Below, piece after piece: positions 8,250 to 55,708 of a stretch of DNA of 64,000 nucleotides (the stretch's first letter is position 1; each line of letters starts with the position of its first letter). Below the pieces are notes generated by a model that was not told the DNA's origin, made no database searches, and saw only the letters and a program-made list of their open reading frames with translations. The position numbers and the translations under genes were made by a program. The stretch is from Eledone cirrhosa (taxonomy: Eukaryota): assembly GCA_964016885.1 (NCBI GenBank), contig OZ024746.1:88598001-88662000 (forward strand), in the 5' to 3' direction.

Positions 8250-8293
8250 GTCAAAGTTATTTCGTCACACATTATGTGAGACTCTTCAGTGAC
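8250..8293 (-). ncRNA. Type I hammerhead ribozyme (family B)
   Basis: gtca-CTGAAGA-gtctcacataatgtgtgac-GAAA-taac-TT-tgac. Confidence 0.75.
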
Positions 8294-8922
8294 TGGGGAT
8301 TCTTTTTTTGTTTTTTTGCCTCTCCTTTGTTCTGTCCAACGCCATCATGTTTTTGTGTGTGTTGTGTGCTTAGTTTGCGCATGTGTTACATTTGTGTGTC
8401 TGTGTGTGTTTATATTTGTTTATTTATTTGTTTATTTACATGTTCCTGGTTGGTTGTTTGTTCTATGTGTGAGTCTTTTTCATTTTGTCCTTAATTGTAA
8501 GTTGTGATGTTGCTATTCCATTCATGTTTTCTATTTAATTTTGGTTGGAGTTCATTTATGTTTATTGACTCTGTGATTTGTCTAAACACTGCGTCTTTTC
8601 TGTGAGTAGATTCTATTTTTATTTCTATGTTCTCTAATTTACTCTTATGTTCTATTTTAGCATGTTGGTGGAGTACATATGATTCTTTACTATCTTGAAG
8701 CTCCGTTCATTTATCCGTTCTTCTATACTACGAGCTGTCTCACCTGTGTACACTATATTCTTATACGAGGAACATGTAAATAAACAAATAAATAAACAAA
8801 TATAAACACACAATTACACCTGGATGTAACACATGCGCAAACTAAGCACACAACACACACAAACACAAGATGGCGTAGGACAGAACAGGGGACAGACACA
8901 AAAACAAAGAAAATAATCCCCA

Positions 8923-8966
8923 GTCACTGAAGAGGTCAGAGAATGTGTGACGAAATAATTTTTGAC
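8923..8966 (+). ncRNA. Type I hammerhead ribozyme (family B, inverted copy)
   Basis: gtca-CTGAAGA-ggtcagagaatgtgtgac-GAAA-taatt-TT-tgac. Confidence 0.75.
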
Positions 8967-10140
8967 AATATATGAACACTCGTCTGGTTGTTGAACCAAC
9001 CAACCAACCTGAAATTTATAAATTCTTAAATTTATGAATTTAATTTATAATAAATTGAAGTGAAAGCAACTGGTGCGTGTGTTTCTTATTGGCAACATGA
9101 CCCTCCCAGAGCATAACTATATCGGTTTCAACACACGTTTTTAGATAAAGAATCTTGCTAAACAAATTCAGAAACGAAAAATATATATGTATATATATAT
9201 ATATATATATATATATATATATATATATATATATATATATACCAAAAATACAGAAAGACTGCTATATAGAGGAGATGGTGATTATATAGAACCATGACAA
9301 ACAAAACCGATGTAATTCATTGATCCGTCCTATACACGGCAGCTTTAAAATATATATTAACTATACTGCTGTCCTTGTTGCTGTGTCATGGTGTGTGTGT
9401 GTGGTTGGAGAAAATTCAAAAGCTGCAAATCATTTTCCGGAGGGTTATTATCAAGACAATATTGGAAAACAAAACGACTTTGATATAAGTGACCATAAAT
9501 TGAATTATGAATATAGTTTATAAGTGAACGTAATAATTTCCCGTCTTGCTTTGATATAAAATATTAGATTCATCCGAAATACATACATCAGAAAACAAAG
9601 TAGTACAAAATGAATAAATAAACTCGAGATATCGAAGTATAAATATGTAATATTTGTTATTATGTGTTTGCGGATGTATGTGTGTTTTTAAGTGTTTATA
9701 TGTGGATATGTATGTGTTTGTATGCGTTGAGGTTTCATAGACTATTTGTCTGGGTATTTCACTCACGATAATATATCATGAATTCAATTCCCGGCAGTGC
9801 GTTGTTTTCTGGAGCAAAATGATTTCCTTTACAAGACGCGAGTCCACACAAATAGTTCCCATGTGATCCAAAATGACTTTGTATCACGCTGAATCTCTAT
9901 GTTACATTACGTATACAGGACTTGCGAAATGCTCAGCCACTTGTAAGTATTATGTACAGGTTCTATTTCATTATTCGAACGAACGTTAGACTCGCCAACT
10001 TAACCGAAGTTTGTCCAACGCATTTTTATTTGAAACAGATATCTTTGAATCTCCCTGTCTTTCACTCACATTCATTCACACTCTGCCAGTCTCTCTCTGT
10101 ATACCCCCTATATATATATATATATATATATATATATATC

Positions 10141-11050
10141 ATAAATCATGTCCTTGGAAGTATTAGATAAAGTATATACCATTTCCTCTCCCAATTATCA
10201 TAATTAACCATATAACAAATCAATTAGACCAGGCTATAAGAATAAAGGCTCCTATGAAGAAATATTTGATAAATAACCGAAAGGACATGATTTATGATAT
10301 ATTGCTCTGACAATTTAATTTATTAATTCTTCATTGAGCCACATCGTGACCGGTTGCCACATATATATCTGTGACTTTATGTATATGTAAATCTTTATAT
10401 TTAATAATCTCCCGTTGGGTTGAGATGCAATGTGGCGATATTGGGCTGCGCTTTCTAGCAACCAGCCTACTCGCTGTAACATTCTTTCTAACTTGAGGAA
10501 TGACACGTCACGATTCTTAACCATTATTTGAATATATATCTGGCGCGATCGCTTTGTAAAATTAACTGACTGAGTGAGTTTGTCTCCTGATGAGTTCGTT
10601 ACTCTAGATTCATCCTTAATGATAGGATATCTCAAAATACGAACGAAACCATGGTAGAGATGTAATTACGGTATGTACACGTTTCTTCTAACTTTAAATT
10701 TATACCTAATTGTTTATGGTTGACGGTATATGTAATCAGTTTCTGCATGCTGTTGAAATGTTGGGTAAATACCCTATTGGGTTCAACCGCGAAGAGGCCG
10801 CTTTCGGTTATTTATCAAATATTTCTTCTTAGGAGGCTTTATTCTTATAGCTGGTCTAATTGATTTTTTATATGGTTAATTATGCTAATTGGGAGAGGAA
10901 ATGGTATATATTTTATCTAATAATTCTAAGAACATGATTTATGATATATTGGTCTTATTATTTAATTTATTAATTCCTTCATTGAACCACATCGTCACCG
11001 GTTGCCGCATATATATCTGTGACTTTATGTATATGTAGATCTTTATATTT
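10141..11050 (+). mobile_element. Non-coding PLE-tail-like element with inverted and direct partial duplications
   Basis: 10141-10283 is the reverse complement of 10801-10945; 10285-10400 is directly repeated at 10932-11050; both ends abut (TA)n; contains an HHR. Confidence 0.75.
10582..10661 (+). ncRNA. Type I hammerhead ribozyme, canonical core, enlarged stem II loop
   Basis: gtctc-CTGATGA-gttcgt(39 nt)acgaac-GAAA-ccatgg-TA-gagat; GUA cleavage triplet. Confidence 0.9.
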
Positions 11051-54753: not shown

Positions 54754-55342
54754 AATCTATCTGTATCCCCTTTCTTTATAGCTCTGTCCCTATATATGGT
54801 AGTTGAAGTGGAGGTGGTGGTGATAGACCAGAAGTGTTAACATTTGAAACCTTTAAAAGAAGTGAATCTTGACATACTCAATAAAAGTATCTATGTTTAA
54901 TCAAGAGTTACGAAATTTAGTAATATCCATTCATTATTTATTCAAATTAATCCAACTACATTTTCCTAATGGGATACAAAATTATAAACAGGACACAGAC
55001 CTTCACTCCCATTATTATATATATATACATACATATATATATATATATATATATATATATATATATATATATATATATATATATATATATATATATATAT
55101 ATATATATATATATATATATATATATATATATATATATAAATATATATTATATTTATAAATATATATAAAAACAGTTTCGCTCTACATGGCTGAAAAGGA
55201 TAAATGTAATCTGAGTTTTCGAATATTAATAATAATATTCAATCCGTTTGCAATTATGAACGAGAGCCAGAATGAAGGGCTCATTCTACTGACATGGCTT
55301 TAAAAATGAGGATAGTCTGCATAATGGCAAAGGGCTCGAATA

Positions 55343-55460
55343 TTCTGAGTTCAAATCCCGTCGAGGTTAACTTTGCCTTTCATCCTTACCGGGTCGATAA
55401 AATAAAGTACCAGTAATGAACTTGGTAATTGCTGGACTTGTGCCAAAAGTAGAAACAATC
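55343..55460 (+). mobile_element. 5'-truncated SINE nested in the MITE-like element 55209-55486
   Basis: CTGAGTTCAAATCCCGTCGAGG..GTAGAAACAAT. Confidence 0.85.
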
Positions 55461-55666
55461 ATTATTAATATTCGAAAAAGTCAGAATATATATATATATA
55501 TATATATATATATATATAAGGATTAAAATACTGGAGCGTGTTGGAGTTAAACACCCTCTTCGTATTATAGAAATGACAGTAAAAGATATAGCTCAATGAA
55601 GTTAAACAGAGCCAAAAAATTAAGAGAGTAAAACAAAGAATCCTTTAATGCATCAAAAGTTTTTAT

Positions 55667-55708
55667 TAGCCGACAATGTTTCGTCATATTAAGGACTCAT
55701 CAGGGCAA
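55667..55708 (-). ncRNA. Minimal type I hammerhead ribozyme
   Basis: ttgcc-CTGATGA-gtccttaatatgac-GAAA-cattg-TC-ggctaa, followed by TAAAAACTTTT like the family D tail. Confidence 0.88.

Follow-up and report, generated by a model that had tools for sequence, protein, structure and literature searches.

Hammerhead ribozymes (HHRs) are nearly universal in Penelope-like elements (PLEs) with a C-terminal endonuclease (EN), yet insertion in vitro can do without them (PMC8557442, PMC11167929). Minimal type I HHRs of PLEs, mostly solo copies from truncated elements, have been counted at 2,000-9,000 per genome (Cervera and de la Pena 2014, PMC4209133). Here we describe such motifs in a 64-kb stretch of the genome of Eledone cirrhosa, in the following referred to as the window; comparisons with published systems refer to the portions of the papers cited. 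The Eledone motifs share with the PLE HHRs of PMC4209133 the type I topology, a short stem I, a palindromic stem III and an optional unpaired base after A9, and they likewise occur mostly as solo copies from truncated PLEs and in opposite-strand pairs 100-700 bp apart. By contrast, stem II domains of up to 80-105 nt, frequently with U.U or C.A at their base, are an Eledone feature, and while the core variant in PMC4209133 is U3-A8, those in Eledone are U4A, U4C and A6U.

Three further systems are relevant. The description of the Hydra clade of PLEs drew on 21 Repbase families and a small number of additional ones, most of them under 3 kb in length (Craig et al. 2021, PMC8557442), with the octopus family Hydra-1_Obim listed in the supplement. 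Six families of the window resemble this reference in their C-terminal EN, RWK and DKT motifs, CxCX5C linker, CxxC and CxH, as well as in their (TA)n targets and the presence of an HHR, whereas one full-length unit in Eledone measures 3.6 kb. Metazoan non-LTR retrozymes, which are found beside PLEs and have been proposed to derive from them, consist of tandem units that lack an ORF and contain a single type I HHR apiece (PMC7229834; bioRxiv 10.64898/2026.07.22.740005), an organization that recurs in Eledone. Lastly, U4C, A6C, U10.1-U11.1 and stem I-II pseudoknots have all been recorded in natural HHRs, the core changes among them lowering activity (Perreault et al. 2011, PMC3088659; PMC7151607).

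From sequence comparisons, we are confident that the motifs of the window are type I hammerhead sequences located in PLE terminal repeats and in four short ORF-less units that likely use the same enzyme, and that they are frequent because most insertions likely retain only the 3' end, the site of the HHR.

Hammerhead copies in the window

The window contains 23 HHR core copies from 13 repeat families, of which 11 are structurally intact, including three with variant cores, and 12 are damaged. The initial annotation had listed eight HHRs, eleven variant or degenerate motifs and about ten repeat families. All 19 sites are identifiable as hammerhead sequences: each of the eight main sites carries an intact type I HHR (cores 8289-, 8927+, 10587+, 29567+, 33903+, 46935-, 49264+ and 55703-), the stretch first read at 46817 being the 3' part of a copy whose stem II spans 96 nt, and the eleven others are all copies of HHR-bearing families. 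Four copies (29388-, 15215-, 11216+ and 29702-) come in addition to that list.

A strict descriptor, fixed before the families were seen, yielded five matches in the window, whereas locally dinucleotide-shuffled sequence gave 0.13 (60 shuffles) and the reversed sequence none. It is blind to families D, E, F, G, H, J and K, owing to stem II basal mismatches, 3-bp stems I or variant cores. A broader descriptor, tuned after the families had been seen, found 11 matches, a frequency not matched by shuffled sequence (0.3 in 40 shuffles) and set against a single match in the reversed sequence; a one-mismatch descriptor separates weakly (9 versus 4.2 overall). Of 89 matches to the strict descriptor, 44 have a perfectly palindromic stem III. 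Stem covariation, which had been suggested as a further control and was counted in three families, is evident in families M and F, where no shuffle out of 500 reaches the score for compensatory changes, but not in family K, which does not exceed its shuffles (463/500). In F, the covariation includes the long stem II domain. The pairs that support the proposed GGG/CCC pseudoknot of family F are all invariant.

Rfam returned no match in the window at the gathering score; at E<=5, its sole HHR match was Hammerhead_1 at 55665-55709 (21.9 bits, under the gathering score), and the other matches were to miRNA families, driven by microsatellites. This result, together with the damage seen in half of the copies, might be taken to mean that the motifs arose by chance in repetitive, AT-rich DNA. 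Such a reading is refuted by match counts 30 to 100 times those in local shuffles and in reversed sequence, and both the covariation in M and F and the fixed place of the motifs in PLE 3' ends speak against it, leaving it with a negligible probability. A direct-repeat search of the window was dominated by (TA)n.

Nine families at the 3' ends of autonomous PLEs

Families A, C, E, G, H, I, J, K and L are identified by collinear upstream ORFs as 3' pseudo-LTRs (pLTRs) of 5'-truncated autonomous PLEs, six of them Hydra-type. Together with the four ORF-less families described below, they bear out the association of type I HHRs with PLEs and retrozymes. The ORF end lies within the window in A, C, G and H, and upstream of longer copies elsewhere in E, I, J, K and L. 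Families K and H had been considered as non-autonomous, but this was rejected when ORFs were found 1.5-2.2 kb upstream.

Of the Hydra-type families, G is present as a 5'-truncated element at 46982..49420 (+) with ORF remnants to about 48412, followed by a 3' UTR and a pLTR that includes an HHR with an 81-nt stem II (49261..49366, +). A full-length element of this family, L309, is bounded by a pair of HHRs at a distance of 3,622 nt and is 93% collinear with the window; the full-length comparison covered this family, the only one in which two direct pLTRs were seen around a full-length ORF. Family H has its HHR, the one detected by Rfam, at 55669..55706 (-), and its ORF, which ends at 57954, retains an open C-terminal part of 278 aa with CxCX5C, CxxC and CxH (57954..58789, -); three of six retrieved copies extend to the ORF. 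Family C is present with broken RT and EN fragments (12982..13718, +) in an element ending near 14860 and with a broken ORF end containing CxCX5C, CxxC and CxH (29977..30757, +) in an element reaching about 31850; the EN is found 950-1,074 nt upstream in three copies. Its HHRs are located at 14788..14850 (+; core CAGAAGA with U4A, U.U at the base of stem II and a hairpin stem III), at 24456..24518 (+), at 31779..31832 (+; stem III partly deleted) and, as a 5' half only, at 29684..29707 (-), the end of an inverted arm (29684-30028). The family E HHR (33894..34029, +), with a 99-nt stem II and C.A at its base, lies within a palindrome (33761-34087) in a Hydra-type pLTR, with an ORF link in 15 of 41 copies. 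The family K HHR (39874..39922, -) has the U4C core CCGAAGA and belongs to a Hydra-type pLTR with a 3' UTR of about 1.5 kb, with the ORF in three of three extended loci. Family L, which belongs to the commonest HHR superfamily, is represented by a degenerate copy with G5C in a Hydra-type pLTR (45823..45885, +; first reported at 45825), with the ORF in two of four loci.

The Hydra-type identity of these families is based on motifs and an Atlas lead. The CxCX5C linker occurs in the ORFs of C, E, G, H and K, and CxxC and CxH occur in those of C, E, H and K, while L is assigned by tblastn to Hydra-type ENs. RWK is found in L309, RWR and DKT in locus L127, DKT in L021 and DKA in L023. No CCHH was seen on inspection of the Hydra-type ORFs by eye; Pfam gave no match in the PLE fragments of the window or in two long Hydra-type ORFs, and neither did a PDB search with the Hydra-type ORFs.

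The remaining three families differ in type. Family A is Neptune/Nematis-like, and the window contains an inverted insertion (8093-9122) of which one arm carries a minimal type I HHR in a 3' pLTR (8250..8293, -; core 8289), 206 nt downstream of the broken C-terminal end of the family GIY-YIG endonuclease (8494..8765, -). A relative (L034:1805-2980) matches Pfam GIY-YIG with E 1.3e-5. The divergent partner HHR (core 8927) is at 8923..8966 (+), and a further copy with G12A at 19355..19397 (-) is predicted to be dead. The family EN occurs 205-315 nt upstream in 9 of 27 copies, against a background of 5.4%. Family I, also in the pLTR of a Neptune/Nematis-like PLE, has an HHR with a weak stem I at 11890..11932 (+; first reported at 11893) within a palindrome (11649-12142), a degenerate copy at 11213..11255 (+) and another one with a weak stem I at 24826..24868 (-; first reported at 24840); its EN lies 240-282 nt upstream in three copies. 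The ORFs of A and I share a CX4CxxC linker that is compatible with both Neptune and Nematis. Family J is the pLTR of a young PLE, with RT and/or GIY-YIG at four loci. It has DKG and a Pfam GIY-YIG match, its linker differs from that of A and I, and its clade is unplaced. Within a palindrome (14966-15584), it shows an HHR with the core CAGUUGA and a 4-bp stem II (15332..15367, +) and an inverted partner with the U4A+A6U core (15183..15218, -).

ORF-less units

The remaining families of the window, B, D, F and M, consist of head-to-tail units without ORF, measuring 662 bp in B, 1,270-1,288 bp in D, 764-770 bp in F and 482-552 bp in M, with one type I HHR in each unit. Family B is represented by an element with an inverted tail piece (about 10134-11050), enclosing an HHR with a 51-nt stem II and a palindromic stem III (10581..10662, +). 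Family D has an HHR with a 45-nt stem II and U.U at its base (29562..29635, +) as well as an inverted partner with G12C (29320..29393, -), both within a palindrome (29281-29674). A search of sequencing runs with the D unit gave no RNA data set among those listed. The family F element, with a tandem unit of ~767 bp (about 45941-46975), comprises an HHR with a 96-nt branched stem II and the possible GGG/CCC pseudoknot (46817..46945, -; core 46935) and, 764 bp from it, a second one that has lost the 3' strand of stem I (46062..46175, -). The M copy (51702..51740, +; first reported at 51698), from a retrozyme-like tandem family, lacks the 5' strand of stem I. Another family, N, has a unit of 311 bp and lies outside the window.

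These units might look ORF-less simply because the retrieved copies are internally deleted or tandem, in which case all 13 families would be autonomous PLE ends. Nine of the families proved to be just that once longer copies were retrieved, with the ORFs of K and H appearing beyond 1.5-2.2 kb of UTR, and the ORF-less assignment draws on the best 40 candidates scored per search. In B, D, F and M, however, the upstream sequence joins the unit's own 3' end, and the junctions are seamless and crossed by copies at several independent loci in each family, with up to 28% divergence. The longest sense-strand ATG ORFs are 34-58 aa, Pfam does not recognize the 125-aa open frame of unit D, and no PLE protein remnants were detected in B, D, F, M or N, where a search with a PLE protein set gave nothing below E 0.11 for B, D, F and M. 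We therefore regard this explanation as improbable, though B, D, F or M could have an autonomous relative that shares the pLTR and acts as its parent element.

The initial annotation had envisaged a large, unannotated class of ORF-less, PLE-mobilized elements. Of the 13 families, this applies to the four families B, D, F and M, which look PLE-mobilized, the other nine being ordinary pLTRs, and the class is not new as such, given that both non-LTR retrozymes and solo minimal HHRs left by truncated PLEs have been published (PMC4209133, PMC7229834, bioRxiv 10.64898/2026.07.22.740005). M (~485 bp) and N (311 bp) fit the retrozyme description directly, with M (482-552 bp) close to the published unit of ~150-450 bp. 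B (662 bp), F (~767 bp) and D (~1,280 bp) are longer, and D exceeds the published maximum of 972 bp, a value from a search limited to periods <=1,000 bp (PMC7229834; bioRxiv 10.64898/2026.07.22.740005). Moreover, unlike retrozyme arrays, B, F and D are mostly dispersed 5'-truncated or inverted copies with a PLE end signature; M forms tandem arrays of up to seven units, whereas B, F and D form dimers or partial tandems only.

One may ask, following the initial annotation at its boldest, whether the ORF-less families constitute a separate, new class of self-cleaving RNAs that spread on their own, by satellite expansion or RNA-RNA replication. M and N build extended tandem arrays and, in circular form, are strongly folded (z versus shuffles -9.9 for M, inflated by a (TA)16 run, and -5.8 for N), and with 0.66-1.29 kb the units are longer than the 170-400 nt reported in PMC7229834. 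Yet D and F have PLE-type 3' ends and (TA)n targets, D also has inversions, and tandem repeats that carry a type I HHR and measure 51-972 bp have previously been described as PLE-derived retrozymes, which makes a separate class very improbable. Instead, their fixed PLE-type 3' ends and (TA)n targets suggest that D and F are likely non-autonomous, retrozyme-like passengers of PLEs. ORF-less units with PLE-signature ends provide genomic support for the idea that PLE enzymes move retrozyme-like units. A point against our main explanation is that B (z -1.9) and D (-0.6) gain little or nothing over shuffled sequence when folded as circles, in contrast to F (-7.3), M and N.

Insertion architecture and proposed mechanism

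The HHR occupies a fixed position in the insertions, with 3' ends a little downstream and variable 5' truncation. Relative to it, A has two 3' ends (+196 and +253), as does D (+132 and +200 to +204), while F has one (+307 to +312, in 20 of 27 copies). A (TA)n flank is present in 28/35 copies of A, 29/37 of D and 12/27 of F; for B the count is 2/10, with several copies ending at the locus boundary. 5' truncation, 5' inversion, an optional tail and a microsatellite target were all encountered in the families for which they were counted (A, E, J and K). Neighbouring copies of the same family form 44 divergent, 9 tandem and no convergent pairs. A pooled count of opposite-strand pairs (32 divergent, 20 convergent) was discarded, as it mixes unrelated insertions.

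In the mechanism we propose, the RT-GIY-YIG protein of a PLE would nick (TA)n DNA, and reverse transcription would start from either of two internal sites that lie beyond the HHR on its 3' side, at a distance of ~130-370 nt. Copying would proceed through an intact HHR, implying a template that is either uncleaved RNA of more than unit length or a re-ligated circle, and would mostly stop early or switch strand. The HHRs may cleave slowly, chiefly as dimers via the palindromic stem III, and cleavage of tandem transcripts would give rise to the unit lengths. For insertion, cleavage would probably be dispensable, which would explain the spread of families with U4 and A6 changes.

Families with variant cores

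Some of the altered motifs are not decayed copies. Those at 15332 (J) and 39874 (K) are intact, with core changes fixed throughout the family, and those at 14788, 24456 and 31779 (C) combine a family-fixed U4A core with damage specific to each copy; at 46062 and 51698, one strand of stem I is lost. U4A is present in 23 of 25 family C matches, U4C in 44 of 47 family K matches and U4A+A6U in 39 of 40 family J matches. The J copies are 97-99% identical to each other, from which we conclude that this family spread recently. While the natural core variants reported previously are rare single cases (PMC3088659, PMC7151607), the Eledone changes U4A, U4C, U4A+A6U and U4C+A6U are fixed in multi-copy families. 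U4A and A6U do not occur in the main-text passages compared; their figures and supplements, or Lunse et al. 2017, could contain them.

It is therefore worth considering that the HHR fold serves mainly as a protein-binding or RNA-folding scaffold, with cleavage being vestigial in C, J and K, if not more widely. The family-wide fixation of the core changes and the youth of family J despite its variant core would fit, as would the anole PLE, in which HHR mutants left insertion in vitro unaffected (PMC11167929). At the same time, C, J and K retain C3, G5, G8, A9, G12, A13, A14 and A15.1-U16.1, and U4C and A6C variants elsewhere keep a low activity (PMC3088659, PMC7151607), so that we consider this reading somewhat unlikely. 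The ribozyme activity of the families of the window, including the abundant ones with altered cores, is best described as putative. With dozens of independent families, young copies and both canonical and variant cores, the Eledone genome offers a ready panel for cleavage assays.

Abundance in the genome

In 1.38 Mb sampled outside the window, we found 180 HHR matches, compared to 5.3 in shuffles. The extrapolation to the whole genome gives ~350,000 HHR copies (range 243,000-469,000), an estimate that exceeds the published per-genome PLE figures with which we compared it (2,000-9,000; PMC4209133). The window had been described as very dense in HHRs. This is true, but it is nothing particular to the window: at a score of at least 6, there are 172 matches per Mb in the window and 130 in 69 sampled blocks, and at a score of at least 8, 94 and 115, respectively. 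The notion of a local hotspot was accordingly rejected.

A bolder synthesis, which we judge unlikely as it stands, would combine these observations as follows. The genome would harbour around a third of a million intact HHRs, more than in the published counts compared, as a result of the dominance of Hydra-type PLEs and long ORF-less passengers; the recently active families with fixed U4 and A6 changes, in which all catalytic bases and helices are kept, would represent either a new attenuated or ion-tuned HHR subtype or a scaffold read by the PLE protein. If true, matched canonical and variant families would make the role of PLE hammerheads directly testable.

The words 'hammerhead' and 'ribozyme' are absent from the main text of a recent curated octopus repeat annotation (PMC13282606), suggesting that short HHR families may carry other labels there. 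In the Eledone sample, PLE ORF-like DNA of all clades makes up 4.0%.

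Hammerhead ribozymes in the window and across the genome

The window has a GC content of 34% and abundant (TA)n. A strict descriptor of type I hammerhead ribozyme sequences (HHRs), which was fixed before the families were known, yielded five matches, compared with 0.13 in 60 local dinucleotide shuffles. A broad descriptor, tuned only after inspection and tolerating a mismatch at the stem II base, stems II of up to ~130 nt and changes at the core positions U4 and A6, yielded 11 versus 0.3, and the motif excess over shuffled sequence is real. Family-wise inspection brought the total to 23 core copies in 13 repeat families (A to M), 11 of them intact and 12 damaged or partial; these include all 19 sites named in the initial annotation and four further copies.

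While the HHR landscape is indeed dense, as had been proposed, this is not peculiar to the window, which is part of contig C6 in an assembly of 3.0 Gb. The sample comprised 1.38 Mb from 17 large contigs, in 69 blocks of 20 kb each, at round-number positions that were hand-picked rather than randomised. The broad descriptor matched 180 times versus 5.3 in shuffles (159 versus 2.0 at scores of at least 8), and the strict one 89 times at scores of at least 6, versus 0.8 in shuffled and 0 in reversed sequence, with a single array supplying 14 of the 89. The HHR content of the window is ordinary for its genome. Extrapolation from the broad count at scores of at least 8 gives ~345,000 HHRs per genome (block bootstrap 243,000-469,000), and from the strict count alone ~190,000. 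The published counts consulted, obtained with other descriptors, are lower than ~345,000: 126,247 in axolotl, >6,000 in Acropora and ~5,000 in mussel (PMC7229834), and ~9,000 in Xenopus (PMC4209133). The 175 sample matches with scores of at least 7 form 35 clusters, one of which, the L cluster, is a mixture of subfamilies with 44 members; 82 matches fall into ORF-linked clusters, 45 into the ORF-less families B, D, F, M and N (the latter found outside the window), and 48 into neither set.

Nine families as probable ends of Penelope-like elements

The initial annotation had noted several HHR families without an ORF in the window. B, D, F and M are ORF-less units, whereas the other nine (A, C, E, G, H, I, J, K and L) have an ORF link and, judging from their sequences, represent ends of Penelope-like elements (PLEs). 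Search loci were those matching the window copy best, and because some of them overlap, some copies are counted twice. In A, the HHR at 8289 has the broken end of a GIY-YIG endonuclease (EN) 206 nt upstream, and the family EN is found 205-315 nt upstream in 9 of 27 copies (background 5.4%); in I, it lies 240-282 nt upstream in three copies. The HHR of C follows a Hydra-type EN at 950-1,074 nt in three copies, two of them in the window. The ORF lies upstream in 15 of the 41 core-spanning E matches and is collinear in 13 of these. Family G is represented by a full-length element (L309) with an HHR-to-HHR distance of 3,622 nt, to which window 46982-49397 is 93% identical. The H ORF in the window, which ends at 57954, and the HHR at 55703 are collinear across a UTR of ~2.2 kb, as is the case at two other loci (L320, L321). 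Reverse transcriptase (RT) and/or GIY-YIG domains occur at four J loci (Pfam E 4e-5), and a Hydra-type ORF was found ~1.5 kb upstream in 3/3 extended K loci and reached in 2/4 extended L loci. DNA resembling PLE ORFs makes up 4.0% of the 1.38-Mb sample.

By the motifs described in PMC8557442, C, E, G, H, K and L appear to be Hydra-type, and the CX4CxxC linker of A and I would place these in Neptune or Nematis; J is unplaced. Recent activity is suggested by long Hydra-type ORFs that remain open over 470-741 aa (L021, L023, L127, L129 and L309), four of which were met in the 1.38-Mb sample. Pfam and PDB searches with two of these ORFs gave no match; in the ESM Atlas, as a lead only, a Hydra-type ORF adjoins clusters whose members include HTH_animal, GIY-YIG and RVT_1. 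A Hydra-type RT fragment at window 323-730 (+) has no HHR nearby.

Four ORF-less families

Upstream of the HHR, the DNA of B, D, F and M continues into the 3' end of the same family, with unit lengths of 662 bp in B, 1,270-1,288 bp in D, 764-770 bp in F (among them the pair in the window) and 482-552 bp in M. This junction is crossed identically by copies at several independent loci, in B down to 72% identity. No collinear PLE ORF was found among 6 + 5 copies of B, 47 matches of D (two non-collinear matches), 35 matches of F or 33 copies of M (one non-collinear match), and the search for PLE protein remnants in B, D, F, M and N gave nothing better than E 0.11; an autonomous parent may exist for any of the four. 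One D unit contains a 125-aa open frame (L287:1762-2136 (+)) without a Pfam match, possibly a captured fragment. Family N forms an array of 14 near-identical 311-bp units with one minimal HHR each (L113:8745 into L114; also L008); its unit, folded as a circle, reaches a z of -5.8, and by its sequence it would be a classic non-LTR retrozyme.

The initial annotation had envisaged ORF-less HHR elements as a possible large, unannotated class, but PLE-derived retrozymes are already in print (PMC7229834; bioRxiv 10.64898/2026.07.22.740005). The same applies to HHRs in PLE pseudo-LTRs, solo copies from truncated PLEs and opposite-strand pairs (PMC4209133), and to Hydra PLEs, one octopus family among them (PMC8557442, supplement row). 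In the mainly open-access literature searched, we found no cephalopod HHR survey. Three aspects seem new here: the scale, ORF-less units that are long and have PLE ends, and core variants that are fixed within families.

Insertion ends and proposed mechanism

The copies have their HHR within the 3' end and terminate 3' at fixed positions; they also show truncation and inversion, prefer certain targets and form units in tandem. Two such fixed 3' ends are spaced by 70 nt in D and by 57 nt in the autonomous A, corresponding to the two internal RT start sites of an anole PLE (PMC11167929), while F has a single dominant one. (TA)n follows 29/37 copies of D, 12/27 of F and 28/35 of A. Where search loci of A, D, E, F, J or K contain neighbouring copies of one family, these are divergent in 44 cases, convergent in 0 and tandem in 9, those of F being tandem only. 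This insertion anatomy is the same as that published for PLEs (PMC8557442). Palindromic insertions at window 6951-7275, 16294-16694, 28944-29148, 49630-49753 and 60609-60726 contain no HHR detectable with the broad descriptor.

We propose that a PLE protein would perform target-primed reverse transcription, starting at internal sites on the 3' side of the HHR. Its template would be uncleaved or re-ligated RNA, because genomic copies retain the cleavage site. Slow, dimer-dependent HHR cleavage could size tandem transcripts, and ORF-less units might borrow the same PLE enzyme. In the anole PLE, HHR cleavage is dispensable for insertion in vitro (PMC11167929), which is consistent with the spread of variant-core families.

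HHR structure and core variants

Stem covariation, proposed earlier as a check, was found in M and F, with two-sided changes at 5 and 11 pairs, respectively, and scores reached by 0/500 shuffles each, which ignore the relatedness of copies; in K, it did not exceed shuffles. Two rows in the M alignment belong to a related family and supply the stem II changes; the F alignment leaves out L143, a relative that carries an insertion. A perfectly palindromic stem III is present in 44 of the 89 strict sample matches, which, by analogy with metazoan PLE HHRs (PMC4209133), points to dimeric folding. The long stems II of E (99 nt), F (96 nt) and G (81 nt) depart from the textbook motif, and the stem II base is U.U in 37 and C.A in 14 of 159 sample matches.

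Core changes are fixed within families: U4A in 23/25 C matches, U4C in 44/47 K matches (9/10 K copies of the window and the unbiased sample) and U4A+A6U in 39/40 J matches, with J copies being 97-99% identical to each other. Many PLE-linked HHR variants were reportedly described by Lunse and colleagues in 2017, and U4A or A6U may be among them. U4C, A6C and U10.1-U11.1 are known from nature, and their activity is reduced or altered (PMC3088659, PMC7151607); we did not find U4A or A6U in the main texts of these papers, whose figures or supplements may include them. Outside the window, two HHR clusters, one comprising L119:7322 (-), L091:4907 (-) and L150 and the other three matches, share the core CCGUCGA (U4C+A6U), with stems II that measure ~60 nt. 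The boldest reading, which we consider rather doubtful, is that dominant Hydra-type PLEs and ORF-less passengers have given rise to about a third of a million HHRs, whose U4/A6 variants constitute an attenuated or ion-tuned subtype or a non-cleaving scaffold.

Other repeats in the window

A 174-aa frame at window 5710-6231 (-), without a Pfam match, resembles a LINE ORF end. A broken Helitron lies at 35641-37712 (-; Pfam Helitron_like_N, PIF1 and Pif1_2B_dom). A repeat of ~2 kb has two copies (37722-39616 and 52046-54341), the second of which encloses tandem 69-bp repeats (52524-53174) that have open frames on either strand. Finally, a SINE-like family of ~190 bp has more than a dozen copies, at 721-884, 4340-4530, 7585-7770, 26629-26817 and elsewhere, including four in tandem at 32296-33087.
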